In this document: piece by piece, positions 2,598 to 24,621 of the stretch
How positions within the stretch are numbered: the first letter of the stretch is position 1
Layout: each line of letters begins with the position of its first letter
Virus record (IMG/VR): IMGVR_UViG_3300002834_000024
Span: 210,787 to 274,786 of that record
DNA from: a virus
Lineage: Duplodnaviria > Heunggongvirae > Uroviricota > Caudoviricetes
Length of the DNA: 64,000 bases
Direction: 5' to 3' (one strand)
Position numbers and translations under genes: made by a program
The notes under the pieces: generated by a model
The model's input: the letters and a program-made list of their open reading frames with translations, nothing else
What the model was told of the DNA's origin: nothing
The model's database searches: none

Positions 2598-3041
2598 ATG
2601 GCAGCAAGTAAATTTTTTCCAATGAGTGAGGATATTGTAGATTTAATCCTTGATGTAATGAAAGATGATACACCCTATCTGGCGACATTAGGTCTTGATT
2701 TTACTTATCTTGGAGTTGCAAAACAACCATCAATAATTAAAGTATCAAAGATTGCACCAATAGCTGAATATCTTATTGAAAAGGAAACAATTGTAATAAC
2801 AATTTATGAACAAGCATTTGAAATGCTAACACCAGAATATAAGAAGATGGTTATAGCACATGCGTTAAATTCAATTGAATATGATTCAGATAAAGATAAA
2901 TTGAATATTCGTGGAAATGGTGGAACAGCCATTGATGAAGGGATATACAACAAATATAAAGAAACATCTGTACTGGCAGTATTTGCTGGCGAACATGCAA
3001 TCAGACAAATCGAAGAAGATAAGAAAAAAGATAAACAATAA
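2598..3041 (+). CDS. Hypothetical phage protein (possibly degenerate phage metallopeptidase-like)
   Basis: 147-aa ORF; FEMLTPEYKKMVIAHAL segment. Confidence 0.45.
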   Translation: MAASKFFPMSEDIVDLILDVMKDDTPYLATLGLDFTYLGVAKQPSIIKVSKIAPIAEYLIEKETIVITIYEQAFEMLTPEYKKMVIAHALNSIEYDSDKDKLNIRGNGGTAIDEGIYNKYKETSVLAVFAGEHAIRQIEEDKKKDKQ

Positions 3042-3364
3042 TGGACAAAATTGAAATTAGAGTTGGTATTGGTTTGGATAGTATAACTTTTGCTATATTA
3101 CCATCCAGAAGACAATATATAAATAATTGTTATCCAGATACAATTCAAGCAAACTATGTTACCATTAACTATGATATTAATAAGTGTGAAAATGTTGAAA
3201 ACTTTATTTTGAAGTATAAACATAATATTTCCACAATCTTATTTGGAATAGATAGTCAAATTGTTTTATCTGATGATAAAGTTAGAGAAATACAATTTGT
3301 GTATTCCAAAGACGAAAAAATATTATATACCTATACAATGTCAGATCATTGTAGAAAAATATAA
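3041..3364 (+). CDS. Hypothetical protein
   Basis: ORF coupled to upstream stop (TAATG). Confidence 0.55.
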   Translation: MDKIEIRVGIGLDSITFAILPSRRQYINNCYPDTIQANYVTINYDINKCENVENFILKYKHNISTILFGIDSQIVLSDDKVREIQFVYSKDEKILYTYTMSDHCRKI

Positions 3365-3368
3365 TATA

Positions 3369-3518
3369 TTATTTAGTTCTGATAATAGCACGTCTTGTAT
3401 TCACTCTTGGAGTAACCCCACCATAGTTACCATTAGGTTTAACCCCAATATTTCTTGGTGCTTGTTTTTGAACCTGTGTTTTAACAGCTGGTACAGCTCT
3501 TTTTGAACAATTGCACAT
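3369..3518 (-). CDS. Small basic protein MCNCSKRAVPAVKTQVQKQAPRNIGVKPNGNYGGVTPRVNTRRAIIRTK (49 aa, not in ORF track)
   Basis: Clean ATG-TAA ORF with TATTTATA on the minus strand at 3536-3543. Confidence 0.55.
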   Translation of the reverse strand: MCNCSKRAVPAVKTQVQKQAPRNIGVKPNGNYGGVTPRVNTRRAIIRTK

Positions 3519-3633
3519 AATATTAATTATTTTAATATAAATATGATTAAAACTTGGAATATTGAAATATTTATACTATATTTATAAATGAAATTACAGA
3601 GGTAATTCAAGAAAAAAGAAAATAACAAGGTAA

Positions 3634-4007
3634 AGGAAATTCACAGCAATTTTTTAAAAATTAACAATTATTCAATTCAAAGACCGTAGGGTTGATCTAT
3701 CGGGATCAACAAACAAAAACAAATTTCCTGTCTTTTTTAAAGGAAAACTAACAGCAATTTTTAAACATACAAATTTTAGGCGTGTATTAAAGAGTTTTCC
3801 GTTTTTTTTTTGAAAATTTAGAAATAATCAATATATTTATATTTGATTAAAAATTATATCGTGGGATGGAGAAGTGGTATCTCGTGGGGCCCATAACCCC
3901 AAGATCGCAGGATCGTAACCTGCTCCCGCAACAAACTTATAGGAAAACTAACAGCAATGTTTAAAAACCATCATTCTGAATCAATGACGACATTAAAATG
4001 TTTTCCG
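3634..4007 (+). repeat. Three ACAGCAA stem-loop units (3634-3730, 3741-3801, 3941-4007), candidate small RNAs
   Basis: Each has a GGAAA-containing 5' arm, then ACAGCAAT, an internal hairpin and the complementary TTTCC arm. Confidence 0.65.
3860..3931 (+). tRNA. tRNA-Met(CAT), initiator type
   Basis: C1:A72 mismatch, GGG/CCC anticodon stem, loop CCCATAA. Confidence 0.85.
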
Positions 4008-4056
4008 TTATTTTTTAAAAATTGAACTATTTATAATTCTAAAAGAAATTAAAAAA

Positions 4057-4191
4057 ATGTTTTTAGTAACAATGACATCTTATATTCAAAATTCTATCAA
4101 TTTACGTGGTGGAAATAAGAATAATAAACCCTTTGGTGATGATGAACAACCAAAAGGGCAAGACCTGTTATTGCAAAAATTTGAAACATAA
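4057..4191 (+). CDS. Leader peptide 1 of putative tRNA-array attenuator, MFLVTMTSYIQNSINLRGGNKNNKPFGDDEQPKGQDLLLQKFET (alternative start 4072)
   Basis: Core 4105-4164 has 19 of 20 codons for R,G,N,K,P,D,E,Q, the amino acids of the downstream array; overlaps antiterminator strand 4162-4173. Confidence 0.75.
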   Translation: MFLVTMTSYIQNSINLRGGNKNNKPFGDDEQPKGQDLLLQKFET

Positions 4192-4220
4192 ATGAAGATA
4201 TAAGTTTCCATAGTTTTTCA

Positions 4221-4279
4221 GAGAACTCTCAATAACAAGGTCAAGAATAGGGCAAGTTATTGGGAGTTTTCATTTTTTT
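4221..4279 (+). terminator. Intrinsic terminator of attenuator 1
   Basis: 16-bp stem GAGAACTCTCAATAAC/GTTATTGGGAGTTTTC followed by A and T7. Confidence 0.8.
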
Positions 4280-4322
4280 AACATCCAGTTCAAAAGAGTT
4301 TGAATAATTTGGATTACTTTTG
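4278..4322 (+). promoter_or_regulatory. TTAACATCCAG box plus TActTTTG -7 promoter upstream of tRNA array 1
   Basis: Box 4278-4288; -7 element starts at 4315. Confidence 0.75.
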
Positions 4323-4332
4323 TAAAAAATAT

Positions 4333-4407
4333 GGCGGTATCGTATAACGGTTAGTACGACTGACTTTCGCTCAGTAAATAGGGGTTCGATTCCCCTTACC
4401 GCTACCA
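4333..4407 (+). tRNA. tRNA-Glu(TTC)
   Basis: Cloverleaf, loop CTTTCGC, encoded CCA. Confidence 0.92.
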
Positions 4408-4431
4408 AGAAAGTTCTTTGAAATATAAAAT

Positions 4432-4503
4432 TCCCCTGTAGCTCCAATGTAGAGCGACAGACTGTTAATCTGTGGGTTCGTGGTTCAAGTCCACGCAGGG
4501 GAG
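4432..4503 (+). tRNA. tRNA-Asn(GTT)
   Basis: Cloverleaf, loop CTGTTAA. Confidence 0.92.
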
Positions 4504-4511
4504 CTAAAAAA

Positions 4512-4588
4512 CGAAAGGTAGAGGAGTCTGGTTCCCTCGTCATCTGATGTGCAGGTGGAGTACAATGGTTCAAATCCATTACTTTCGA
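4512..4588 (+). tRNA. Atypical tRNA-like gene (Pro-like body, non-canonical anticodon loop GATGTGC)
   Basis: Acceptor CGAAAG/CTTTCG plus A73; T arm AATGG-TTCAAAT-CCATT; D loop like the next tRNA-Pro. Confidence 0.6.
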
Positions 4589-4595
4589 CTAATAT

Positions 4596-4671
4596 CTAGA
4601 TGTATAGGAGTCTGGTTTATCTAGCTCGCCCTGGAAGCGAGATCACGTTGGTTCAAATCCAACCATCTAGA
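4596..4671 (+). tRNA. tRNA-Pro(TGG), variant loop CCTGGAA
   Basis: CTAGATG/CATCTAG acceptor, CTCGC/GCGAG anticodon stem. Confidence 0.8.
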
Positions 4672-4678
4672 CACAAAT

Positions 4679-4752
4679 GCAGGTGTCGTATAACGGTATT
4701 ATTATATCTGGCTTCCAACCAGAGGACGTGGGTTCGATTCCTATCACCTGCT
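4679..4752 (+). tRNA. tRNA-Gly(TCC)
   Basis: Cloverleaf, loop CTTCCAA. Confidence 0.92.
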
Positions 4753-4762
4753 CAACAAATAT

Positions 4763-4835
4763 GGGATTTGTGGTGTAATGGCTAGCATATAACACTGTCA
4801 CTGTTAAGGTTGGGGTTCGAGTCCCCCAGATCCCG
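4763..4835 (+). tRNA. tRNA-Asp(GTC)
   Basis: Cloverleaf, loop CTGTCAC. Confidence 0.9.
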
Positions 4836-4843
4836 CAAAAAAA

Positions 4844-4916
4844 CGAGTAGTCGCACAGTTGGTAGTGCGCTTGGTTTGGGACCAAGAGGTCGGGAGTTCG
4901 AGTCTCTCCTATTCGA
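4844..4916 (+). tRNA. tRNA-Pro(TGG)
   Basis: Cloverleaf, loop TTTGGGA. Confidence 0.92.
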
Positions 4917-4932
4917 CATAAAAATAGAAATT

Positions 4933-4998
4933 ATGAAGAAGATTTTTAAAATAAAACGAAAACATATGCAGTCCCCATAGTCACTATCGGCTATGGGG
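4933..4998 (+). promoter_or_regulatory. Mini-ORF MKKIFKIKRKHMQSP (4933-4980) overlapping a GC-rich hairpin (4973-4998)
   Basis: CCCCATAGTC/GGCTATGGGG stem; lies directly before the Lys, Arg and Gln tRNAs. Confidence 0.45.
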
Positions 4999-5013
4999 TC
5001 GCTATCAGGCTAT

Positions 5014-5084
5014 TTCCTCATAGTTCAATGGTAGAACTCTACACTTTTAATGTAGATATTCAGGTTCGATTCCTGATGGGGAAA
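5014..5084 (+). tRNA. tRNA-Lys(TTT)
   Basis: Cloverleaf, loop CTTTTAA. Confidence 0.9.
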
Positions 5085-5116
5085 CAAAAAAAAAATAGAT
5101 ATATGATAATTAATAT

Positions 5117-5188
5117 GGTTTCATAGTTCAACGGATAGAATATTTGACTACGGATCAAAAGATGAGGGTTCAAATCCTTCTGAAATCA
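5117..5188 (+). tRNA. tRNA-Arg(ACG)
   Basis: Cloverleaf, loop CTACGGA. Confidence 0.9.
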
Positions 5189-5199
5189 CAAGCATATAT

Positions 5200-5271
5200 T
5201 GTCCTATGGTGTAGTTGGAAACACACATCCCTTTGACGGATGTATCTTTTGTTCGAGGCAAAATGGGACAA
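5200..5271 (+). tRNA. tRNA-Gln(TTG)
   Basis: Cloverleaf, loop CTTTGAC. Confidence 0.85.
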
Positions 5272-5290
5272 CAAATTAAAATATAATGTT

Positions 5291-5593
5291 ATGGATAAAA
5301 TAATGATGTTTGATAAAGAACATGAAGTTCTTGTTAGTAATGATACTAATGGATTAGTATGTGAAACTGAAATGATGAATATGATTGGGAAATCAACAAT
5401 TCCAGTTTTTATGAATAGAAAGCAAAAATTAGAAGAACATGCAAGTTTGTTGTTAAATGATTTAGATGTTGAAATTATTCAATCACATCCAGTTGAACCA
5501 TCTAAAATTCATGTAAAAGTAAAATCATTTGAGGATTGGAAAGAATCTATAAAAGATATACCGCCAATTGGAGTAGTAACCATACCTAATTGA
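5291..5593 (+). CDS. Hypothetical protein (start moved downstream of tRNA-Gln)
   Basis: ORF-track 5240 start overlaps the tRNA; MDKIMMF start near 5291-5292. Confidence 0.5.
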   Translation: MDKIMMFDKEHEVLVSNDTNGLVCETEMMNMIGKSTIPVFMNRKQKLEEHASLLLNDLDVEIIQSHPVEPSKIHVKVKSFEDWKESIKDIPPIGVVTIPN

Positions 5594-5607
5594 TAATACC
5601 ATCTAAT

Positions 5608-5652
5608 TTAACATCCAGTAAAATTTATTTTTATATAAGTTTATTATTTTTG
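5608..5652 (+). promoter_or_regulatory. TTAACATCCAG box plus TAttTTTG promoter
   Basis: Box 5608-5618; -7 element at 5645. Confidence 0.75.
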
Positions 5653-5685
5653 TATCATTATTAACACAAATAATTTAAAAAAGTT

Positions 5686-6033
5686 ATGAGAATTGCATTT
5701 AGGCTTTGTGATAATACAAAACAGTTAAAAACAACTGATAAAAATGCACATGTTTTTGAAAGAGTAGATGATACATTCATAATTCCAAGAAAAGGTGATG
5801 TAGTTGTTTTTTTTGGTATAAAATATGAGGTAATTTCAGTAGAATTTACCTATAAAGAAATATCATTATTAAATATGTATCATGATGAAGCAAAGAAGAT
5901 TTATCCATTTATTGTGGGACAAGATGATAAAATAACAGATACGGTAACTGTTCATTTATTTGAATATAGTCCAAAAATAAAGAAAAAGGGGTTTATTCGC
6001 ACACTTCTTTCACATGGGTTTACTAATTTTTAA
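5686..6033 (+). CDS. Hypothetical protein
   Basis: 115 aa; IPRKGDVV motif resembles LPRKGDFI in 54677..55120. Confidence 0.55.
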   Translation: MRIAFRLCDNTKQLKTTDKNAHVFERVDDTFIIPRKGDVVVFFGIKYEVISVEFTYKEISLLNMYHDEAKKIYPFIVGQDDKITDTVTVHLFEYSPKIKKKGFIRTLLSHGFTNF

Positions 6034-6062
6034 AATTCATATTTATAAGAAAATATGTTTTT

Positions 6063-6302
6063 ATGGAAAAAATTGAAAATATTATAAAAGAAACTATAAC
6101 TGAATATGTTTTGCAACCAGAGGGGTTGGATCAAAAGATTAGAAATAAATTAACACCAATATATAATCTCATTGAAGTATTAAAAATGTATGATAAAGAT
6201 CCAGATCCAAAAATATGGGCGTTTATTATGAAAGAAAACAGTATGGTTGAAAAATCTATTCAAGAGATATTGGAATTAACAAAAGATTATCAACACACTT
6301 AA
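6063..6302 (+). CDS. Hypothetical protein
   Basis: ORF after TATTTATA 6040-6047. Confidence 0.5.
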   Translation: MEKIENIIKETITEYVLQPEGLDQKIRNKLTPIYNLIEVLKMYDKDPDPKIWAFIMKENSMVEKSIQEILELTKDYQHT

Positions 6303-6316
6303 AATCATATAATGTT

Positions 6317-6529
6317 ATGACAGAAAAACAGAAACAAAAAATTTGGAATTTCAAGGATACCAATCTTCAACAATGGCAACATGAAAGAACTATTGTTGAA
6401 AATGAATTATCTAATAATCAATCCATGTTTTGTGTTTGTGGTAAATTAGCCACAGGATTTCATGAAATGAATTGTAGAAAATTCAATGATAAAGTGGATA
6501 TAGAAACTCTTAAAAGATTAAAATTATAA
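6317..6529 (+). CDS. Small Cys/His (zinc-binding-like) protein
   Basis: CVCG...HEMNC. Confidence 0.5.
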   Translation: MTEKQKQKIWNFKDTNLQQWQHERTIVENELSNNQSMFCVCGKLATGFHEMNCRKFNDKVDIETLKRLKL

Positions 6530-6531
6530 AA

Positions 6532-6576
6532 TTAACATCCAGAACACTTTTTATTAATATGTTATGTTTATCTTTG
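6532..6576 (+). promoter_or_regulatory. TTAACATCCAG box plus TAtcTTTG promoter
   Basis: Box 6532-6542; -7 element at 6569. Confidence 0.75.
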
Positions 6577-6629
6577 AGTAATTTTTAGAGATAAAAGGAT
6601 ATTTATTTAGTAGAAAAGATAAAAATAAT

Positions 6630-7361
6630 ATGATTATGAACAAAGATAAAAAAGACTTGATAGTTGAGAGTTATAAGAACAAATTTTCCTTTTTACTTGG
6701 ATATGATCCAGAAATTGGGGGCGAATTGATAGAAGCAAACCACCATAATTTTATGTCAGAAATTATGGGACAAGATTCATTCAATAAACAACCAATGCAA
6801 AGATTAGATGAAATAACAACTGACAGATTGTTAGGAAAACATTATGAAAATGGATTTGTTATTCTGTCAGCATCAAGGAGTGAATTATCCGATGCAGAAA
6901 ATGTAACACGAAATCAAAAACTTTTAAATATTTTACAAAGTAGTAGTAATGTTTTTTCATTTTTACCAGTCTATGGTGGATATATCGAAAATAAGGGTAC
7001 AGAAAACGAACAACGTGTTTTTGAAAGAAGTTTTGTAATCTTGAATTTTGATAAAAATGGTAATGTTGGAGATTTTGATGATTTAATGAGTTTTTCACAA
7101 GAACTTTCTAATCGTTTTCATCAAGAAACATATCTTATCAAAAAACCAGGTAATGCACCACCATATTATATTCGTACAAAAAGTGGCAAGGTAGATTGGG
7201 AATTTACTGGTGAAATCAAAATAGATGATTTAACACAAAAATATTTTACCCGATTAAGACAACTTGGAAAACAATTTACATTTGAAGGTGTTTATATTAA
7301 TCCAAAACCAATGTGTTATAGTGAAAGACATTGTAGATATTTGAAAAATGAAATATTTTAA
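6630..7361 (+). CDS. Hypothetical phage protein (DUF3293-like)
   Basis: GFVILSASR...EN..RN..L...PVYGGY.E...ERSF pattern. Confidence 0.5.
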   Translation: MIMNKDKKDLIVESYKNKFSFLLGYDPEIGGELIEANHHNFMSEIMGQDSFNKQPMQRLDEITTDRLLGKHYENGFVILSASRSELSDAENVTRNQKLLNILQSSSNVFSFLPVYGGYIENKGTENEQRVFERSFVILNFDKNGNVGDFDDLMSFSQELSNRFHQETYLIKKPGNAPPYYIRTKSGKVDWEFTGEIKIDDLTQKYFTRLRQLGKQFTFEGVYINPKPMCYSERHCRYLKNEIF

Positions 7362-7403
7362 CATCCAGAAGATTGTTTTTTAAAAAAATTGTTTGTACTT
7401 TTG
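7358..7403 (+). promoter_or_regulatory. TTAACATCCAG box plus TActTTTG promoter driving a non-coding region
   Basis: Box 7358-7368; -7 element at 7396. Confidence 0.75.
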
Positions 7404-7428
7404 TATCACATATAGAGTAATCTATATT

Positions 7429-7627
7429 GTTTAAATTTAGTTATGAGGATGTGGACTGAATTGTGTGATGTATGTCATTGCAAAATGCACAATTCAAGGG
7501 ATACAGCAAGACAGCTAACAAGGTGAATTAACATCAAAGGGTGAAAATCTCACAAACATAAGGTTGAAAGCCCGTAAAAGAATTTGATGCGTGTTGATTG
7601 TGTAGTAATTATTTTAAACTTTTTTTT
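7429..7627 (+). ncRNA. Candidate structured ncRNA, about 190 nt
   Basis: Own promoter, terminal stem GTTTAAA/TTTAAAC plus T8, internal helices GAATTGTG/CACAATTC and CATCAAA/TTTGATG, GAAA-capped hairpins, no long ORF. Confidence 0.55.
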
Positions 7628-7677
7628 AAAAATTGAATTTATTGACTATTTATAATAAAATTAAAAATTTTTTAACA

Positions 7678-7788
7678 ATGAAACGATTTAGTTTACATAT
7701 TAGTATTACCTTATCAGCAATGGCGTATTGCTGGTTGGTGTCTTATTGTACACTTTTTACACATTTTGGTGGAATTGTTTCAAGTTAA
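7678..7788 (+). CDS. Leader peptide 2 of putative tRNA-array attenuator, MKRFSLHISITLSAMAYCWLVSYCTLFTHFGGIVSS
   Basis: 27 consecutive codons (7687-7767) only for F,S,L,H,I,T,A,M,Y,C,W,V, the amino acids of array 2; last codons form the antiterminator strand. Confidence 0.8.
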   Translation: MKRFSLHISITLSAMAYCWLVSYCTLFTHFGGIVSS

Positions 7789-7819
7789 TATTATATGAAA
7801 TAAAGATAGGAAAGATTAT

Positions 7820-7876
7820 AATCCCCTTGAAACAAATTAGTCAAAAAGTGATGAAAAGTTTTAAGGGGATTTTTTT
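7820..7876 (+). terminator. Intrinsic terminator of attenuator 2
   Basis: 14-bp stem AATCCCCTTGAAAC/GTTTTAAGGGGATT followed by a T-run, ending 2-3 nt before tRNA-Met. Confidence 0.82.
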
Positions 7877-7878
7877 AT

Positions 7879-7950
7879 TGTGTTATAGTTCAGTGGTAGA
7901 ACAGGTGTTTCATAGGCATCAAGTCGGGGGTTCAAATCCCTCTAACGCAA
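7879..7950 (+). tRNA. tRNA-Met(CAT), elongator type
   Basis: Cloverleaf, loop TTCATAG. Confidence 0.85.
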
Positions 7951-7960
7951 CAAATATATT

Positions 7961-8045
7961 GGAGAGTAAACCTGGACATGGGTTAGGGACCGCCTGCTAA
8001 GCGGATCGTTCCGCAAGGAATTTGGATCGAGACCAATGCTCTCCG
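7961..8045 (+). tRNA. tRNA-Ser(GCT)
   Basis: Long variable arm, loop CTGCTAA, G73. Confidence 0.85.
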
Positions 8046-8054
8046 CAAAATTTT

Positions 8055-8146
8055 GGAGGTGTAACCCTAATGTGTAAGGGACTGGTCTTGAAAACCAGCA
8101 GTAATCATGTAAAAGTGATGTGTCAGTTCGAGTCTGACCACCTCCG
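8055..8146 (+). tRNA. tRNA-Ser(TGA)
   Basis: Long variable arm, loop CTTGAAA. Confidence 0.9.
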
Positions 8147-8186
8147 CCTTAATAATGAGGTCTTTGACATGTTGGTAAAAATAAAT

Positions 8187-8274
8187 GAGAGTGCGCTAGC
8201 GTTGGAGAGCTGGGATGGGCTGTAACCCCATTGCCTTTAACAGGGCTTAGTAGGTTCGATTCCTACCACTCTCA
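8187..8274 (+). tRNA. tRNA-Tyr(GTA)
   Basis: Loop CTGTAAC, long variable arm. Confidence 0.9.
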
Positions 8275-8279
8275 CATAT

Positions 8280-8354
8280 GGGAATATCGTATAGGTGGTT
8301 ATTGTACGCTGGACTGAAAATCCAGAGGCTGGGGTTCAACTCCCTGTGTTCCCA
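8280..8354 (+). tRNA. tRNA-Phe(GAA)
   Basis: Loop CTGAAAA. Confidence 0.9.
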
Positions 8355-8364
8355 CAATAAGTGA

Positions 8365-8448
8365 GGGGATGTGGCGAAATTGGTAGTACGCATCGGGTTT
8401 AAGCCCCGATTCCCAAAAGGAGTGTCGGTTCGAGTCCGACCATCCTCA
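8365..8448 (+). tRNA. tRNA-Leu(TAA)
   Basis: Loop TTTAAGC, variable arm. Confidence 0.9.
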
Positions 8449-8456
8449 CAACAAAT

Positions 8457-8541
8457 GGGGATATGGGGGAATTGGCAGACCCGCCTGTTTTAGGAACAGG
8501 TGCAGTAATGCGTGTGAGTTCGAGTCTCACTATCCCTACCA
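8457..8541 (+). tRNA. tRNA-Leu(TAG)
   Basis: Loop TTTAGGA, encoded CCA. Confidence 0.92.
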
Positions 8542-8544
8542 AAT

Positions 8545-8615
8545 GTTCCATTAGCATAATGGTAGTGTACTGGTCTGCAAAACCAGGTGTATCCGTTCAA
8601 TTCGGATATGGAACT
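8545..8615 (+). tRNA. tRNA-Cys(GCA)
   Basis: Loop CTGCAAA, U73. Confidence 0.88.
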
Positions 8616-8629
8616 CAAAAAATATTAAA

Positions 8630-8702
8630 GGGGCTGTCATATAGTTGGCTATTATGATAGATTTGCAATCTATTCACTGGGGTTCGAGACCCCACAGCTC
8701 CA
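8630..8702 (+). tRNA. tRNA-Ala(TGC)
   Basis: G3:U70, loop TTTGCAA. Confidence 0.9.
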
Positions 8703-8708
8703 CAAAAA

Positions 8709-8782
8709 GTTTCTGTATTTCAGTGGTTTAGAATGTTACTCTTACAAGGTAAAGGTCGTTGGTTCAAATCCAACCAGAAACA
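8709..8782 (+). tRNA. tRNA-Val(TAC)
   Basis: Loop CTTACAA. Confidence 0.88.
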
Positions 8783-8792
8783 CTCATAACAT

Positions 8793-8865
8793 TGGCACGT
8801 ATATCAATGGTCAGATTACCACCCTGATAAGGTGGGGGTTACTGGTTCAAGTCCAGTCGTGCCAA
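8793..8865 (+). tRNA. tRNA-Ile(GAT)
   Basis: Loop CTGATAA. Confidence 0.9.
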
Positions 8866-8880
8866 CTAAATTTTTTATAT

Positions 8881-8951
8881 AGGTACATGGTGTAATGGTA
8901 GCATTTTGGTCTCCAAAACCAACGATCAGGGTTCAAATCCTTGTGTACCTG
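8881..8951 (+). tRNA. tRNA-Trp(CCA)
   Basis: Loop CTCCAAA, G73. Confidence 0.92.
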
Positions 8952-8957
8952 CTACAT

Positions 8958-9031
8958 GGTATCGCTGGTGTAATGGTTAGCATGGCACATTGTGAGTGTG
9001 TAGGTTAGGGGTTCAAGTCCCCTGCGATACC
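8958..9031 (+). tRNA. tRNA-His(GTG)
   Basis: G-1:C73, loop TTGTGAG. Confidence 0.88.
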
Positions 9032-9087
9032 CAAATATTTGGAAAACAATTTTAAAAACAGTATTTTTGTATTAAAATTTTAAAAAT

Positions 9088-9594
9088 ATGAATAAAAAAA
9101 TGATTTTATTGTCAATATTAATGACAAGTCTGTTTTATGGTTGTGGAAGTATGGGTAGTGTTGCTGTTAAAAATGTAAATTCATGTACATATAAAATTGT
9201 TAATACAACTTTTATTTATGATTTGTTTGATAGTGATGAAGAATATGAAAATAAATTTAGGTTAATTAAATTAGCAATTTATGATATATTTCCTAATATG
9301 GATGGTAACACATTTTTATTTGATGATGAATTAAAAGTTATTCAAGGAAAAATGATTTATAATGTACATACAGATTCTTTTTTTGGAACAAAATATGAAG
9401 GGAGAAGTAATTTCAAAATTATTAATAATAAGATAACATTTAGTAATCCCGAAATATTTTTTTTACCATCTCGTTATAGTAGTGGTGGGTGGGAGAAAAT
9501 ACCAAATGAGGGAACTATATCTGAAAAAACCGCATGTAATACAATAGATGTGTGGGAAAAAATGGTAATAAAACTTTTAGAAAACATAAAATGA
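9088..9594 (+). CDS. Putative lipoprotein located within tRNA array 2
   Basis: Signal peptide with LFYGC lipobox-like site; TAttTTTG at 9062. Confidence 0.6.
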   Translation: MNKKMILLSILMTSLFYGCGSMGSVAVKNVNSCTYKIVNTTFIYDLFDSDEEYENKFRLIKLAIYDIFPNMDGNTFLFDDELKVIQGKMIYNVHTDSFFGTKYEGRSNFKIINNKITFSNPEIFFLPSRYSSGGWEKIPNEGTISEKTACNTIDVWEKMVIKLLENIK

Positions 9595-9599
9595 TTAAT

Positions 9600-9671
9600 G
9601 CTTCTGTAGTTCAATGGCTAGAACATCTGCTTTGTAACCAGAAAATATCAGTTCGATTCTGATCAGAAGCT
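9600..9671 (+). tRNA. tRNA-Thr(TGT)
   Basis: Loop TTTGTAA; C31:C39 mismatch. Confidence 0.85.
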
Positions 9672-9871
9672 CTCAATTTTTACCAACAAAATGTCAAAAG
9701 AATTATATAATTGGTTAGAATTTCGTTTCAGACATGATAATTTAAAAAAATATCATAAATATTTTCAACAATGGGTTGATAATATAACTGAAAATCAAGT
9801 TCAAGGTTTTTATAATCAATTTACCAGTTTCATAGGTCAAGATATAATTTGGAAACCATAATTTACCAACA

Positions 9872-10195
9872 ATGAAAAATTTCAATAAACTTAGAGAGGA
9901 AGAAAAATATATTTATGAATCCATTATGGCAGCCAGAAAGGTTCAATCTTTTTTATGGGGCGAATTTGAAGAAACAAGTGCTGACATAGAAGAATTTTGT
10001 CGAATGTTTCGGAAAAGAGTTTCAAAAATTGATGAAATAGATTTTAATAATCCACATTATAAAATTGAATTAAAAAAGAGGGTACTTCAAATTTGTGCTA
10101 TTGGTATTAATTTTATCAATAAATTGGAAAATAATGACTTTCCTGAAAAACCACTATTACCATCTAATCTTTCAAACTATTCATTATCCAATTAA
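9872..10195 (+). CDS. Hypothetical protein (possibly MazG-like helical)
   Basis: ELKKRVLQICAIGI C-terminal helix. Confidence 0.4.
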   Translation: MKNFNKLREEEKYIYESIMAARKVQSFLWGEFEETSADIEEFCRMFRKRVSKIDEIDFNNPHYKIELKKRVLQICAIGINFINKLENNDFPEKPLLPSNLSNYSLSN

Positions 10196-10246: not shown

Positions 10247-10714
10247 TTGGAAAAACAGCTTGATTATATATCAATATTTAAAGTACATAGTGTTGAACCC
10301 ATTAAACCTTCAAACTGTGATGGTACTATTCGTTACATTACATTGTGTATTACTTGTGATACCAAACCCAATGATACATCCTTTGATTCATTAAGAGTTC
10401 TTACAACCTCTAAAATTCCAGATGCTTATCATGAAGGATTTACTACATTTGAGGAATATGAGGAAATACCTTTTAGAGTGATTACTACACTAATTCAATG
10501 TAATAAGATTGATGACATATTTTATTTGGAACTTGATATGTCAAAACCATCTTGCGATATGGGTATTACAATTGATGGTTACATTGGTATTGATCCAAGA
10601 ATTGATATTGATGTAAGTAACTTTTTAATAACTTCTAACCAAGATGTGTTTAATTCAAATACAATTACTTTTAATGAGGATTTTTTTAATAATATAAAAA
10701 ACATAAAATTTTAA
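10247..10714 (+). CDS. Hypothetical protein
   Basis: TTG-start ORF ending FNNIKNIKF. Confidence 0.5.
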   Translation: MEKQLDYISIFKVHSVEPIKPSNCDGTIRYITLCITCDTKPNDTSFDSLRVLTTSKIPDAYHEGFTTFEEYEEIPFRVITTLIQCNKIDDIFYLELDMSKPSCDMGITIDGYIGIDPRIDIDVSNFLITSNQDVFNSNTITFNEDFFNNIKNIKF

Positions 10715-11112
10715 TGGAAGAACTATCAAATAATAAGATGGAAAAAGTAATGACTGAAACATGGGAAAAGTTTTTTCGTTGTATTTTTCAATCAAAGAAA
10801 AAAAGTTATGATAATTATTCAGTTTATCAATCTTTATTAAAATTTTATTTTAAAGAATGTGTAGTTAAAAATTATAGTTTAGATTTTTATTTAAGTAACT
10901 TTCGGAAAATTAAATTCATATATAAAACTTATGATGATATTTTTGATTTCATTGTTGCTGGTACATTGAATGATAGATTGGATTTTACTTTTTTCAAAAA
11001 AATTGGTAATATTGTAAAAGAAAATATTGAAATAGAGATGCAAAATAATAAAATAGAAATTTCAAAATTTGATGAAAATTACTTTAATAATATAAAAAAC
11101 ATAAAATTTTAA
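10685..11112. repeat. 30-bp direct repeat TTTAATAATATAAAAAACATAAAATTTTAA at 10685-10714 and 11083-11112
   Basis: Identical copies bracket ORF 10714..11112. Confidence 0.85.
10714..11112 (+). CDS. Hypothetical protein
   Basis: ORF also ending FNNIKNIKF. Confidence 0.55.
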   Translation: MEELSNNKMEKVMTETWEKFFRCIFQSKKKSYDNYSVYQSLLKFYFKECVVKNYSLDFYLSNFRKIKFIYKTYDDIFDFIVAGTLNDRLDFTFFKKIGNIVKENIEIEMQNNKIEISKFDENYFNNIKNIKF

Positions 11113-11116
11113 AAAG

Positions 11117-11509
11117 ATGAAAGACAATAACAAAGAAGCCAAAAAATTTGACTTAACAATTAGAAAATTAAAGGGAATTTTAAATTCCGAAACCATTAGT
11201 TTACCCACAAAAGTTCAGGCAACCGAATTATCAACATTGATTCAAGACTTATTCAAGGAGGAAAATGAAAATAATATAAAGTTATTGAAAGAACAATTGA
11301 GGGAACTTTTGAAGAAACATGTTCAATTAGAAAAGAGTGTTAAAGAAAAGGAAAAAGAATTAATTAAATTGAAAAAGGAAAAACAGGCTGAATTTGTTAA
11401 AGCATGTGATGACTTGTTTAATAAAATATCCGATATTGATACTCTTACTTCTCAATACGAAGATTCACTCAAAAGCGCAATTGTAGAAGAAGTTGATGAA
11501 GGATATTAA
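11117..11509 (+). CDS. Coiled-coil hypothetical protein
   Basis: Heptad K/E/L-rich. Confidence 0.55.
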   Translation: MKDNNKEAKKFDLTIRKLKGILNSETISLPTKVQATELSTLIQDLFKEENENNIKLLKEQLRELLKKHVQLEKSVKEKEKELIKLKKEKQAEFVKACDDLFNKISDIDTLTSQYEDSLKSAIVEEVDEGY

Positions 11510-11532
11510 AATCAAATTATCTAAAAAGTATT

Positions 11533-11574
11533 AAAAGGTTGTGAATAGTCATTTTTATTTCACAACCTTTTTTT
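11533..11574 (+). terminator. Intrinsic terminator
   Basis: AAAAGGTTGTGAA/TTCACAACCTTTT plus T-run. Confidence 0.8.
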
Positions 11575-11618
11575 AACATCCAGTAAATATCTACCATATA
11601 ATTTTTATTGTATTTTTG
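11573..11618 (+). promoter_or_regulatory. TTAACATCCAG box plus TAttTTTG promoter
   Basis: Box 11573-11583; -7 element at 11611. Confidence 0.75.
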
Positions 11619-11645
11619 TAATACATTAAAAAAATACAATAAAAA

Positions 11646-11852
11646 ATGACTAATTTTTCAAGTACAACAACAATGTTATTGTTAAATACTGCTGCTGCAT
11701 CAGCATCTAATAATTCTTTGATAAGAACATCCAAAAATTCTAATCAAGATGATGATAACAAGATCACATTAACCAAAGCGATTATTATGATAGTATTAAT
11801 TATTACTCTTTTTTCTTTATTTTTATGGATATTTTTAGAATTTATTATATAA
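11646..11852 (+). CDS. Small membrane protein
   Basis: C-terminal hydrophobic helix. Confidence 0.5.
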   Translation: MTNFSSTTTMLLLNTAAASASNNSLIRTSKNSNQDDDNKITLTKAIIMIVLIITLFSLFLWIFLEFII

Positions 11853-11853
11853 T

Positions 11854-12282
11854 ATGGAATACATTGACAAAAGAATATTACAAAAAATAGCATATGTTCA
11901 AAATGAATTGGACAAATATGTTTATTTACGAAAAGATGATAAGGGATACTACATTGAGTATGCTTTTGCGGATATAGAAGAAAAATATCCTCATGATAAT
12001 CGTTGTTTATCATGGTATGTAAAAAGGGATAATGATCCAACATTTGTATCAATGGAAGTTGATAAAATATATAGATTATCATCTTTTTCATGCTCACCAG
12101 ATAGTGGTTGTTCACCAGGTAATCCAAAATTGAATTGTGCATATTTGGCTGGCAATACAGAAAAATGGTCTTATGATGACCCAAAGAAATGTGCTTGTTG
12201 GCATTTAGAAACTCTTAATTTAGAAAAACATTCTTTTAGGTTAACATTTGAACAAGTAAAACGTTTATTTAACTTAATTTAA
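11854..12282 (+). CDS. Hypothetical Cys-rich protein
   Basis: 142-aa ORF in operon. Confidence 0.5.
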   Translation: MEYIDKRILQKIAYVQNELDKYVYLRKDDKGYYIEYAFADIEEKYPHDNRCLSWYVKRDNDPTFVSMEVDKIYRLSSFSCSPDSGCSPGNPKLNCAYLAGNTEKWSYDDPKKCACWHLETLNLEKHSFRLTFEQVKRLFNLI

Positions 12283-12462
12283 AAAAATCAGTAATTTTAT
12301 GGAAAATAAAAAAGTAAAAATACAACGATTGGATGGACGTTACTATGAAGGTAGAAGTGCATGTGGTTTACAGATGTGGGGATACACAGGTAAAGAGTTC
12401 GATGAATCGGAACCATTTTTAAAAACATTAAGTGAAAATAAAGAATATAAAATTATAAAGTT

Positions 12463-13041
12463 ATGAGAAAAATTAGGTCTAATATTTTTGAAACAAACAG
12501 TTCTTCATCACATAGTTTTAGTATAAATACTGAAACTTTTGAATATGAAGGTAAATGGTTGTTAGAAGCCATTGAAAATGGAACTCTTATTTTGAGGGGC
12601 GGCGAGTATAGTTGGGGATATGAATTACTAGCTGAAAGTGTGGAAAAAGCAAATTATTGTGCTGTTGCATTTGAATATAACTGGCTTGAATATGATTACA
12701 AAAAAATGTTTAGATCATATGAGACTGGCGATGTACGTGAAGTTGTTAAAAATATTTTTGAAGATGTTTTAAAAAGAGAACTGGGATGTACAGATATTAA
12801 ATATGATTTCAGAATAGATAGATGGACCGATAATGATTTGAATAATGAAGATGATGATATTAATTGGGCATACATTGACCATCAATCATGTGATGTTTTG
12901 TATCGAGGATTAAGAGATGCTGGGTGCATTACCAAATACAAAGATAATTTTAAGGTTAATAAAGAAAAGACAGATAAATTTTTTGTTGATCTTATTTTTA
13001 ACAAAAATTCAACAATTGAAGTATATAACGATAATGTTTAA
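12463..13041 (+). CDS. Phage 'FETNSSSSHS' family protein
   Basis: N-terminal IRSNIFETNSSSSHS, YIDHQS, C-terminal NDN. Confidence 0.65.
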   Translation: MRKIRSNIFETNSSSSHSFSINTETFEYEGKWLLEAIENGTLILRGGEYSWGYELLAESVEKANYCAVAFEYNWLEYDYKKMFRSYETGDVREVVKNIFEDVLKRELGCTDIKYDFRIDRWTDNDLNNEDDDINWAYIDHQSCDVLYRGLRDAGCITKYKDNFKVNKEKTDKFFVDLIFNKNSTIEVYNDNV

Positions 13042-13055
13042 TAATTTATAAAGAA

Positions 13056-13217
13056 ATGGCAAAGAAAAAAGGATGCGGTTGTTTCATAGGCGGATTTGGC
13101 GTTGGTTCAGTCCTTGCTATGATATTAAGTTTTATGAAGTGGAACTCAATACTGTGGACATTGTTTCATGGTTGTCTTGGATGGATTTATGTTATTTATT
13201 ATGTAATCTTTTTATAA
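13056..13217 (+). CDS. Small membrane protein (53 aa, not in ORF track)
   Basis: MAKKKGCGCFIGGFGVGSVLAMILSFMKWNSILWTLFHGCLGWIYVIYYVIFL. Confidence 0.6.
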   Translation: MAKKKGCGCFIGGFGVGSVLAMILSFMKWNSILWTLFHGCLGWIYVIYYVIFL

Positions 13218-13233
13218 AAAAATTTTAAAAACT

Positions 13234-13593
13234 ATGGACATTAAGGATTTTTGGAAAGGATGTAAAAGAATATTTGCTGCTGCAATAGTTCTTTTAGTTA
13301 TTTATGGTGTTGGTTATGTCGTTTTTCTTGACTATACCAACAAGGAAGTTGTCGAGGTTATTGTTAAAGACAAGACTGTTAAACCAAAAGGTGAGGGTAA
13401 TAGCATTTATTTGGTATTTACTGATAAGGAGGTATATAAGATAGATGATCAATGGTTTTTTGGTAAATTCAATTCTTCCGACATTTATTCTACTATCGAG
13501 ATTGGACATAAATATCAAATAGTTTCACATGGCTATCGTATTCCAATTTTATCATGTTATAAAAATATTAGAAGTGTTTATAAATTAGATTGA
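13234..13593 (+). CDS. Membrane-anchored OB-fold-like phage protein (DUF1523-like)
   Basis: TM helix, YLVFTD, FNSSDIY, GYRIPILS.YKNI. Confidence 0.6.
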   Translation: MDIKDFWKGCKRIFAAAIVLLVIYGVGYVVFLDYTNKEVVEVIVKDKTVKPKGEGNSIYLVFTDKEVYKIDDQWFFGKFNSSDIYSTIEIGHKYQIVSHGYRIPILSCYKNIRSVYKLD

Positions 13594-13594
13594 T

Positions 13595-13798
13595 ATGATA
13601 AATATTATCAAACAGGGTTATCAACCCCCCATAACCATTAAGTTTGAATGTAATAAATGTGGTTGTGAATGGGAAACTGATGAATTTCGTAATTGTGGTT
13701 CTTCTGTTTATGGTACAAAAGAAGATTATTATACTAAATATAAATATGAACACAATTGCCCAAATTGTGGTGAATCATCAACAAGATATTTGGGATGA
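13595..13798 (+). CDS. Zinc-ribbon protein
   Basis: CNKCGC...CPNCG. Confidence 0.6.
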   Translation: MINIIKQGYQPPITIKFECNKCGCEWETDEFRNCGSSVYGTKEDYYTKYKYEHNCPNCGESSTRYLG

Positions 13799-14640
13799 AT
13801 TTTGATAAATGGAAATTTATTAATACCCGAAAGGATGTTATTGAGTTACGTGAATTGATTACCAATTCATTCAAAGACCTTGTTTTTATTGAAGATAGTC
13901 ACCAATATTTTTTAAATGGAAAAGAATTAACAAGTGTTTCAAAGATTGTTGAGTCATTTGTTCCAAAGTTTGATGCGGATGGAATGGCTCAACAATGTTT
14001 TGAAAAATATTATGATAACCCAGATAGTAAATACTATCAAATGACAAAACAACAGATTTTGTCCGAATGGGTTAAGATTAATAAAGATGCTTGTGATAAA
14101 GGTCATCATAAACATGATTATGGCGAAAACTTATTCTATCTCCATACACATCAATTCGATAAAATAAAATTACAATATCTATACGATCATTATAAACAGT
14201 ACTATTTTGAACCACATCCAAATGATTTTATGAATCATAATGTGTGGAAGTTTTGGTTGGATTTACCAGTTGAATATATTCCAATTTTATGTGAAACAAG
14301 GGTATATGATGAAAGTAAAGGATATAGTGGTACATTCGATATATTGTTTGCTTGGGATAATGGTAGAACACCATTAAAGGATAACTTAATTATAGGAGAT
14401 TATAAAACAAATCGTGATTTATTCAAGAATGTTAATAATCAAATCATGTTATCCCCATTTGATAATATGTTAGATATGCCATATTCACATTATCAACTTC
14501 AATTATCACTCTACCAAATTCCATTAGAAAATATTGGTTGTCGAGTAATTGATAGAAGATTAATTTATTTAAACAATCCAGTCAAGTATGAGATGTACAG
14601 GTTGGATAATCATACAGAACAATTAAGAAATATTTTATGA
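13795..14640 (+). CDS. PD-(D/E)XK exonuclease
   Basis: E..V...YSGTFD...IGDYKT...YQLQLSLY. Confidence 0.8.
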   Translation: MNFDKWKFINTRKDVIELRELITNSFKDLVFIEDSHQYFLNGKELTSVSKIVESFVPKFDADGMAQQCFEKYYDNPDSKYYQMTKQQILSEWVKINKDACDKGHHKHDYGENLFYLHTHQFDKIKLQYLYDHYKQYYFEPHPNDFMNHNVWKFWLDLPVEYIPILCETRVYDESKGYSGTFDILFAWDNGRTPLKDNLIIGDYKTNRDLFKNVNNQIMLSPFDNMLDMPYSHYQLQLSLYQIPLENIGCRVIDRRLIYLNNPVKYEMYRLDNHTEQLRNIL

Positions 14641-24549: not shown

Positions 24550-24621
24550 GGTCCTGTAGTATAATGGACAGTACATAAAACTTCTAATTTTAGAGTGATG
24601 GTTCAATTCCATCCAGGATCA
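24550..24621 (+). tRNA. tRNA-Arg(TCT)
   Basis: Cloverleaf, loop CTTCTAA. Confidence 0.88.

Follow-up and report, generated by a model that had tools for sequence, protein, structure and literature searches.

The 64,000-nt stretch analysed here, called the window below, makes up the final 64 kb of one contig of 274,786 bp (IMG/VR record IMGVR_UViG_3300002834_000024; 29% G+C), and this report concerns the leader region that precedes the first of its two tRNA arrays. The contig codes for a portal protein, a tail sheath, a helicase, a sigma factor and further phage proteins, and its DNA is present in two termite-gut metagenome runs and in no listed RNA run; it is a giant termite-gut phage of ~275 kb. 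The sequence from the second run is identical to the window and thus gave zero natural variants. The host is probably a Bacteroidota bacterium, which is suggested by the TAnnTTTG boxes of the phage, because in that phylum the primary sigma factor uses this motif as its -7 box (PMC7366714). ARAGORN finds 26 tRNA genes in the window. Ten of them follow the leader and form array 1; array 2, at 7879-9032, starts with tRNA-Met at 7879 and holds tRNAs of twelve other kinds. The features of the leader region are the following:

4028-4037, plus strand: TATTTATA(AT) box, the promoter-like element of the leader, assigned to a putative late (virion-gene) class
4057-4191, plus strand: leader open reading frame (ORF) of 44 codons, from the program-made ORF list, with a second in-frame ATG at 4072
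4070-4081, plus strand: region 1, 5' strand of the predicted anti-antiterminator, pairing with 4160-4173 in minimum-energy folds and lying in codons 5-9
4092-4114, plus strand: hairpin A inside the ORF (folds of all five homologues; RNAalifold)
4105-4164, plus strand: putative sensing core, codons 17-36 of the leader ORF
4129-4158, plus strand: hairpin B within the sensing codons, arms 4129-4137 and 4149-4158 (folds; RNAalifold)
4160-4173, plus strand: region 2, alternative partner of region 1 or region 3 (folds)
4221-4279, plus strand: predicted terminator, a 16-bp hairpin with a 19-nt loop, then A and U7 (fold and shuffles)
4230-4242, plus strand: region 3, the 3' part of the left terminator arm and the first loop bases, forming the predicted antiterminator with region 2
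4278-4322, plus strand: second promoter-like element, TTAACATCCAG at 4278-4288, a 26-nt spacer and the TACTTTTG -7 box at 4315-4322 (promoter family)
4333-5272, plus strand: tRNA array 1, with Glu, Asn, an odd tRNA-like gene, Pro, Gly, Asp, Pro, Lys, Arg(ACG) and Gln (ARAGORN, Rfam)

Leader RNA and its relatives

The terminator hairpin has its arms at 4221-4236 and 4256-4271, followed by an A and by U7 at 4273-4279. Its folding energy is -23.3 kcal/mol (z = -6.5), and none of 200 shuffles folds as well. Upstream, 4162-4173 can pair with 4230-4242 in 12 bp with one bulged A, and this antiterminator is the minimum-energy fold when the 3' arm of the terminator is omitted; its duplex energy is matched by 14 of 1000 dinucleotide shuffles. 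The original prediction, made from the letters of this DNA, had placed a leader ORF at 4057/4072-4191, a 16-bp terminator at 4221-4271 and a hairpin at 4129-4158 within the sensing codons, and had proposed that 4162-4173 and 4230-4242 form a helix that excludes the terminator. The ORF (44 aa) and the terminator lie where it had put them, the hairpin forms in every fold and recurs in the relatives, and the homologues keep the proposed pairing. Two further helices were missing from that prediction: helix 1:2, between 4070-4081 and 4160-4173 (-8.9 kcal/mol, reached by 6 of 1000 shuffles), and hairpin A, a second conserved hairpin in the ORF. The whole leader (4040-4285) is highly structured, with z = -4.65. 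As modelled, the switch is a full trp-like design of four segments (helices 1:2, 2:3 and 3:4) plus two ORF hairpins. The antiterminator signal from the one genome is moderate, and conservation carries most of the weight.

Conservation was assessed in relatives that most searches did not reach. Megablast against 50,697 phage records gave no relatives, and distant blastn against phage records gave single-tRNA matches only. A protein-guided IMG/VR search with the SAM-lyase-like ORF returned no relatives, and a promoter-motif scan of IMG/VR gave 118 single scattered matches, which we take as chance. Of two leader patterns scanned against IMG/VR, one gave a GC-rich chance match without tRNAs and the other gave none, and a pattern scan of one metagenome gave one chance match. 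Four relatives, all from gut metagenomes, were found by other routes. L119 and L120 are JGI contigs reached via a metallopeptidase-like gene 1 kb upstream, and L143 and L144 are short ENA metagenome contigs, reached by comparing a profile of three leader peptides with 1.8 billion proteins. Together with the window they are referred to as the five homologues.

All five share one order of elements: a TATTTATW box, an A-rich stretch, an ATG, an ORF of 40-44 codons, a terminator with T7-T9, tRNA-Glu and tRNA-Asn. Insertions and deletions inside the ORF measure 3 or 6 nt, and those after the stop codon are of any length. Although their sequences differ, all five have the three alternative helices (1:2, 2:3 and 3:4) as well as both ORF hairpins, A and B; folded alone, each homologue gives 9-15 bp for 1:2, 9-18 bp for 2:3 and 10-19 bp for the terminator. 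The outer part of 2:3, for example, is GACCU/AGGUC in the window versus GCGACU/AGUCGC in L144, with complementarity kept, and region 1 of L144 mimics the AGUCGC part of region 3. On the five-way alignment RNAalifold recovers hairpins A and B and the terminator, with two-sided changes in 12 of 49 pairs. Two of these pairs lie in hairpin A (columns 82-100), and hairpin B (columns 120-149) has compensatory GC<->UA and UA<->AU pairs, as judged from the per-sequence folds together with RNAalifold on the long alignment; a MAFFT sub-alignment misaligned its 3' arm and was left unused. The energy order 1:2 < 2:3 < 3:4 holds in four of the five homologues. The numbers of shuffles per 1000 that reach the energy of the two alternative helices are:

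Helix 1:2: window 6, L143 2, L120 11, L119 4, L144 49
Helix 2:3: window 14, L143 2, L120 40, L119 0, L144 220 (here the region-3 window cut part of the helix; the duplex in a wider window has -19.2 kcal/mol)

A strongly folded leader could also be an untranslated structured RNA, that is, a small RNA or a protein- or tRNA-binding leader in which the four-way fold matters and the reading frame is incidental. The z-score of 4040-4285 would fit this, as would the local conservation at synonymous positions, for instance in the run that precedes hairpin B. We consider it highly improbable, since the frame is open in all five genomes and has only in-frame indels, the start codon stands at a gene-like spacing to the promoter box, the amino-acid composition signal described below appears in one frame only, and there is no match to an Rfam family. 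The Rfam scan of 3000-10000 (E<=1) gave nearly only tRNA-type matches, the others being far below gathering scores, and no T-box. A derivation of the TTCCATWGTTTTTC box and the terminator arm from a tRNA 5' half was also considered and rejected, the best local alignment scoring 17 against a shuffle mean of 18.7.

The leader reading frame as a candidate sensor

The tRNAs of array 1 serve eight kinds of amino acid (E, N, P, G, D, K, R and Q). We found that the six-frame translation of the whole 275-kb genome holds 189,383 stop-free stretches of 20 residues, among which the leader core is the only one with at least 19 of 20 residues from this set and all eight kinds present. Codons for all eight occur at positions 17-31 of the ORF. 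A parallel case is the leader that precedes array 2 (leader 2), with a stretch of 27 residues that all come from the twelve kinds of array 2 and include all twelve, again the only one genome-wide. Each of the two stretches lies directly upstream of its own array; the thresholds were set from the observed cases, and each stretch is still unique and at most 250 nt from the matching array. In the four relatives, 16-19 of the 20 core residues belong to the array-1 set. The composition signal is confined to one reading frame, and the ATG at 4057 lies 29 nt after the TATTTATA box, a spacing as in real genes of this phage.

The choice of arginine codons points in the same direction. The sole Arg codon of the leader is codon 17, CGT, at 4105-4107. 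The original prediction had matched it to the tRNA-Arg(ACG) of array 1 and not to the other Arg tRNA, at 24550, and both ARAGORN and our codon reading agree with it: tRNA-Arg(ACG) lies in array 1 at 5117-5189, and CGN codons can be read by it and cannot be read by the tRNA-Arg(TCT) at 24550. In long ORFs genome-wide, 70% of the Arg codons are AGR and 30% are CGN, and the Arg codons of the five homologous leaders are CGN in seven of seven cases; some of these lie in conserved helices, so that perhaps four are independent, which gives 0.3^4 or ~0.008.

Leader content also seems to track array content, so far as the genomes at hand tell. The window has a tRNA-Gln in array 1 and two Gln codons in the leader core. 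In L119 and L120 a Gln tRNA was not found at the homologous array end, where Lys or Lys-Arg comes last, with a promoter or a gene behind it, and a Gln codon is absent from the core. The Gln codons thus appear to come and go with the tRNA-Gln gene. The leader core of L144 also has two Gln codons, and on this model a tRNA-Gln would be expected in its array 1. Elsewhere in the core, residues vary freely within the array-1 set, including Lys/Glu charge reversals. The Pro and Gly positions lack this freedom, since the arms of hairpin B are built from their CCN and GGN codons. This hairpin is clearly selected as RNA, and it may, as the original prediction suggested, serve as a pause site for RNA polymerase.

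Two promoter-like motifs around the terminator

Two promoter-like motif classes organise the genome, TTAACATCCAG before replication and regulatory genes and TATTTATA before virion genes. TATTTATA ranks first of 255 A/T 8-mers for a position 20-33 nt before the first ATG (ORFs of 60 aa or longer; 19 of its 81 copies, versus a median of 2.7%). The genes behind it include the portal, a tail sheath/virion protein of 1832 aa and large ORFs of unknown function, and it precedes both leaders and the initiator tRNA, whose own box lies 26 nt upstream of it. The box before leader 1 is kept in all five homologues, in L119 as TATTTATT.

The TTAACATCCAG 11-mer has 12 exact copies in the window, and allowing at most one mismatch gives 13 matches versus 1.9 expected. 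Genome-wide it occurs 26 times, and in 25 cases a TAnnTTTG-like box comes after it at a nearly fixed distance of ~24-28 nt. Behind these copies lie genes for a helicase, a sigma factor (97589-98473), a DNA methyltransferase and ParB-like, polynucleotide-kinase-like (PNK-like) and SAM-lyase-like proteins. Upstream of array 1, TTAACATCCAG at 4278-4288 overlaps the last two U of the terminator tract, and the Bacteroidota-type -7 box, TACTTTTG at 4315-4322, ends 10 nt before tRNA-Glu. Both boxes and their spacing of 26-27 nt are kept in L143, L120 and L119, and the spacer between them diverges. Primary-sigma promoters of Bacteroidota are expected to have a TTTG near -33; the one here precedes the -7 box by just 12 nt. 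What is conserved upstream is TTAACATCCAG, roughly at -49 to -39, and it may be the site of an activator or of an alternative sigma factor. In a simple consensus scan, sigma-70-type promoters were no more frequent than chance.

The original prediction had read 4278-4322 as a promoter that overlaps the terminator U-tract and gives array 1 an unattenuated input besides the attenuated one, unlike array 2. The element belongs to the 26-member family described above, with its spacing kept in three relatives, and, of the two arrays, the bypass motif was found before array 1 only, there being no such promoter between the terminator of leader 2 and tRNA-Met at 7879. From the genes behind each motif, the leader promoter would belong to a late class and the bypass promoter to an early/middle class. 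In L144, the most divergent relative, TTAACATCCAG and TAnnTTTG are absent between the terminator and the tRNAs, and the attenuator is present. The attenuator can thus stand alone as a gate, and the bypass would be a gain or a loss within the group.

A strong promoter motif directly behind a terminator is also what an ordinary gene end would give. In that case the 44-codon ORF would be a small protein gene, or the last cistron of the unit to which the initiator tRNA and small RNAs belong; 4221-4279 would be a plain terminator hairpin, array 1 would be transcribed from its own TTAACATCCAG promoter only, and neither the composition match nor the alternative helices would have a role in regulation. 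Several other TTAACATCCAG copies of the genome also follow T-runs, so terminator-promoter junctions are common in it; the terminator wins in equilibrium folds, as described below, and conserved peptide residues could in principle reflect a function of the peptide. We nevertheless regard a simple gene end as rather improbable. The core composition is unique in the genome and has its parallel at array 2, compensatory changes preserve helices 1:2 and 2:3 across the five genomes, and the residues vary within the array-1 set, even with reversal of charge, with Pro and Gly fixed by hairpin B. Also, in L144 the terminator is the sole gate to the tRNAs.

An early-type TTAACATCCAG promoter is present upstream of leader 2 as well (window 7358-7640) and would give a transcript of ~230 nt, with a T-run near 7621. 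This expected transcript holds ACAGCAAGACAGC and is without an Rfam match, and a structured RNA at this place was not supported (fold of 7400-7640, z = -0.7).

Proposed mechanism and known systems

We consider it probable that array 1 stands behind a trp-style leader-peptide attenuator that senses several amino acids and is transcribed from a late promoter, and that it has in addition an unattenuated early/middle promoter. Transcription would begin near 4044, a few nucleotides beyond the TATTTATA box at 4028, probably late in infection and probably with the phage's own sigma factor, and a ribosome would translate the 44-codon ORF while RNA polymerase advances. With fast decoding, the ribosome would cover region 2 (4160-4173) as region 3 emerges; after its release region 1 would recapture region 2, the hairpin 4221-4271 with its U7 would form, and the transcript would end at ~4279. 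With slow decoding at the Arg, Gly, Asn, Lys, Pro, Asp, Glu or Gln codons among codons 17-33, the ribosome would halt before region 2, which could then pair with region 3 (4230-4242), block the terminator and allow read-through into the ten tRNA genes. The outcome would be a negative feedback on the supply of those same tRNAs. Independently, the TTAACATCCAG...TACTTTTG promoter would start transcripts a few bases before tRNA-Glu. In this sense, array 1 would also have an unattenuated and probably earlier input and array 2 the attenuated path only, and array 1 would probably combine a fixed early supply of tRNAs with a late supply controlled by demand.

Two folding models bear on this scheme. 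When a ribosome footprint was masked on the full-length leader, an equilibrium model that cannot discriminate, the RNA folds to the terminator at 93-98% for any ribosome position in four of five homologues, L119 being the exception; since the terminator wins at equilibrium, the choice would have to be kinetic. We used in its place a snapshot model, in which the transcript ends just before region 4. In the window, region 2 then holds region 3 at 90-99% as long as the A-site codon is 33 or earlier, and at only 2-22% for A-site codons 34-41, where the ribosome footprint covers region 2. The four relatives behave like the window.

Several points weigh against the attenuator reading. Besides the equilibrium result, region 2 is freed in the snapshot model by a stall anywhere within codons 2-33. 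In trpL, region 1 is among the sensing codons; here it falls in codons 5-9, before the core, so that a ribosome stalled in the core would leave regions 1 and 2 both free, and we assume that 1:2 does not re-form around such a ribosome. The scheme would in any case depend on co-transcriptional kinetics. When the genome's 52 terminator-like hairpins are ranked by their upstream competitors, the antiterminator comes only second, and the terminator loop is long (19 nt), so that a simple terminator scan misses it (loop >8 nt). With a promoter directly behind the terminator, read-through may be a minor share of array-1 transcripts, and the early and late labels of the two promoters come from a handful of annotated genes. 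Finally, L120 keeps four Gly codons in its leader, yet a Gly tRNA was not found in its array.

The snapshot result, together with the early codons, is also what a general sensor of translation rate would show. Such a switch would be real and would report the overall speed or loading of ribosomes, for example in any amino-acid or tRNA shortage or in a shut-off of host translation, and the enrichment of array-1 codons would be secondary. The first part of the ORF would fit: 12 of the first 16 codons of the window leader belong to the amino-acid set of array 2, with a similar share in all homologues, and region 1 itself lies within these early codons. A pure rate sensor is, in our view, quite unlikely. 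It would not need a core made of exactly the eight amino acids of the array, nor CGN over AGR for Arg, nor Gln codons whose presence follows that of the Gln tRNA gene, and leader 2 carries the complementary set. The attenuator reading is kept with one concession: since early-codon stalls also free region 2 and 12 of 16 codons are of the array-2 set, the sensor is not strictly array-specific, and its specificity for array 1 would be partial.

The closest known systems are the multivalent attenuators of enterobacteria, ilvGMEDA and thr, and also the trp and his leaders. They share with the phage leader a short translated ORF rich in the sensed codons, mutually exclusive 1:2, 2:3 and 3:4 helices in which 3:4 with its U-tract is an intrinsic terminator, and an energy order 1:2 < 2:3 < 3:4 that makes the choice kinetic; in classical attenuators the 3:4 helix is the most stable. 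An upstream ORF, codon enrichment, a terminator, an antiterminator and an anti-antiterminator can all be identified here from the sequence and its folds. Unlike the enterobacterial leaders, the phage switch would target tRNA genes and not biosynthetic enzymes, and it would sample eight amino acids. Its region 1 comes before the sensing codons and it has two extra ORF hairpins. Additionally, it is phage-borne, with a late-type phage promoter and a second promoter between terminator and target. Classical targets are genes for amino-acid biosynthesis or transport, and here ten tRNA genes follow, so we file the switch apart from the known operon families. T-box riboswitches likewise choose between terminator and antiterminator, report tRNA status and act on translation-related targets. 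They bind one uncharged tRNA directly, without an ORF, through conserved specifier and T-box motifs; unlike in a T-box, the phage signal lies in a reading frame, and a T-box identity was ruled out by the absence of a covariance-model match in Rfam. The tRNA cluster of phage T4, which is transcribed from more than one promoter class during infection, is alike in being a phage tRNA block with several transcriptional inputs, and we know of no leader-peptide attenuator in it. Our literature searches brought up no account of phage tRNA genes under the control of attenuation. What is new here is the four-segment anatomy, its covariation in five genomes, the choice of CGN codons and the assignment of the inputs to two putative promoter classes.

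Why phages carry tRNA genes is debated, with codon compensation and escape from tRNA-cleaving defences as the two views, and to our knowledge the regulation of these genes is almost unknown. If the attenuator reading holds, this phage would measure the decoding speed of defined codons and adjust tRNA synthesis to it in a feedback loop, and the oldest known RNA switch logic would act on a new class of targets. The dual input would add a temporal design, with an early/middle promoter behind the terminator and a late one before the leader. L144, which has the switch without the bypass, is a natural experiment, and the five homologues with their covarying helices are ready-made mutants with which the regulation is directly testable. 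A more far-reaching idea, which we regard as unlikely, is that the leader is the phage's sensor for an attack on the host tRNA pool, part of an inducible counter-defence circuit, with the bypass giving a prophylactic early dose. Late tRNA cleavage would then stall ribosomes in the leader core and cause the transcription of replacement tRNAs. The tRNAs of array 1 include those for Lys, Glu, Gln, Asn, Asp and Arg, kinds that are targets of known anticodon nucleases and other tRNA-cleaving defences (PMC10264068, PMC11555353).

Some observations concern the arrays themselves and their surroundings. The odd gene of array 1 (4512-4589, 78 nt) is called 'tRNA-Thr(tgt)' by ARAGORN and has no Rfam tRNA match; a canonical tRNA-Thr(TGT) lies at 9600 in the window. 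L144 has a tRNA-like sequence with acceptor and T-arm features at 312-385, between the terminator and tRNA-Glu, with no call from either ARAGORN or Rfam. In three genomes, the part of array 1 that separates tRNA-Pro from tRNA-Lys has a conserved Lys-rich mini-ORF of 12-15 codons followed by a hairpin:

Window 4934-4998: Lys-rich mini-ORF and hairpin
L119 11846-11912: Lys-rich mini-ORF and hairpin
L120 14647-14716: Lys-rich mini-ORF and hairpin

Two copies have five Lys codons and the L120 copy four; one or two CGN Arg codons are present, and Gln in two copies. The hairpin after it is strong, is without a U-run and covaries across the three genomes (z = -4.1, -2.7 and -5.9). Mini-ORF and hairpin may form a second sensor within the array, or may mark its Lys-Arg-Gln end for processing.

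The initiator tRNA upstream of the leader is flanked by repeated units with an invariant ACAGCAA motif, which are kept in relatives and are closed by a long-range stem and a T-run (window 3634-4016; L119 10700-11020; L143 1-70). In L120, array 1 is interrupted after tRNA-Asn by an HNH/DUF559 endonuclease gene (13155-14438) with a TATTTATA box of its own, and this insert adjoins a Pro-like degenerate tRNA. Also in L120, between the metallopeptidase gene and the initiator tRNA (10658-12521), a TnpB/Cas12f1-like gene of 417 aa lies beside five 36-nt repeats with a 66-nt period, which look like a CRISPR array.

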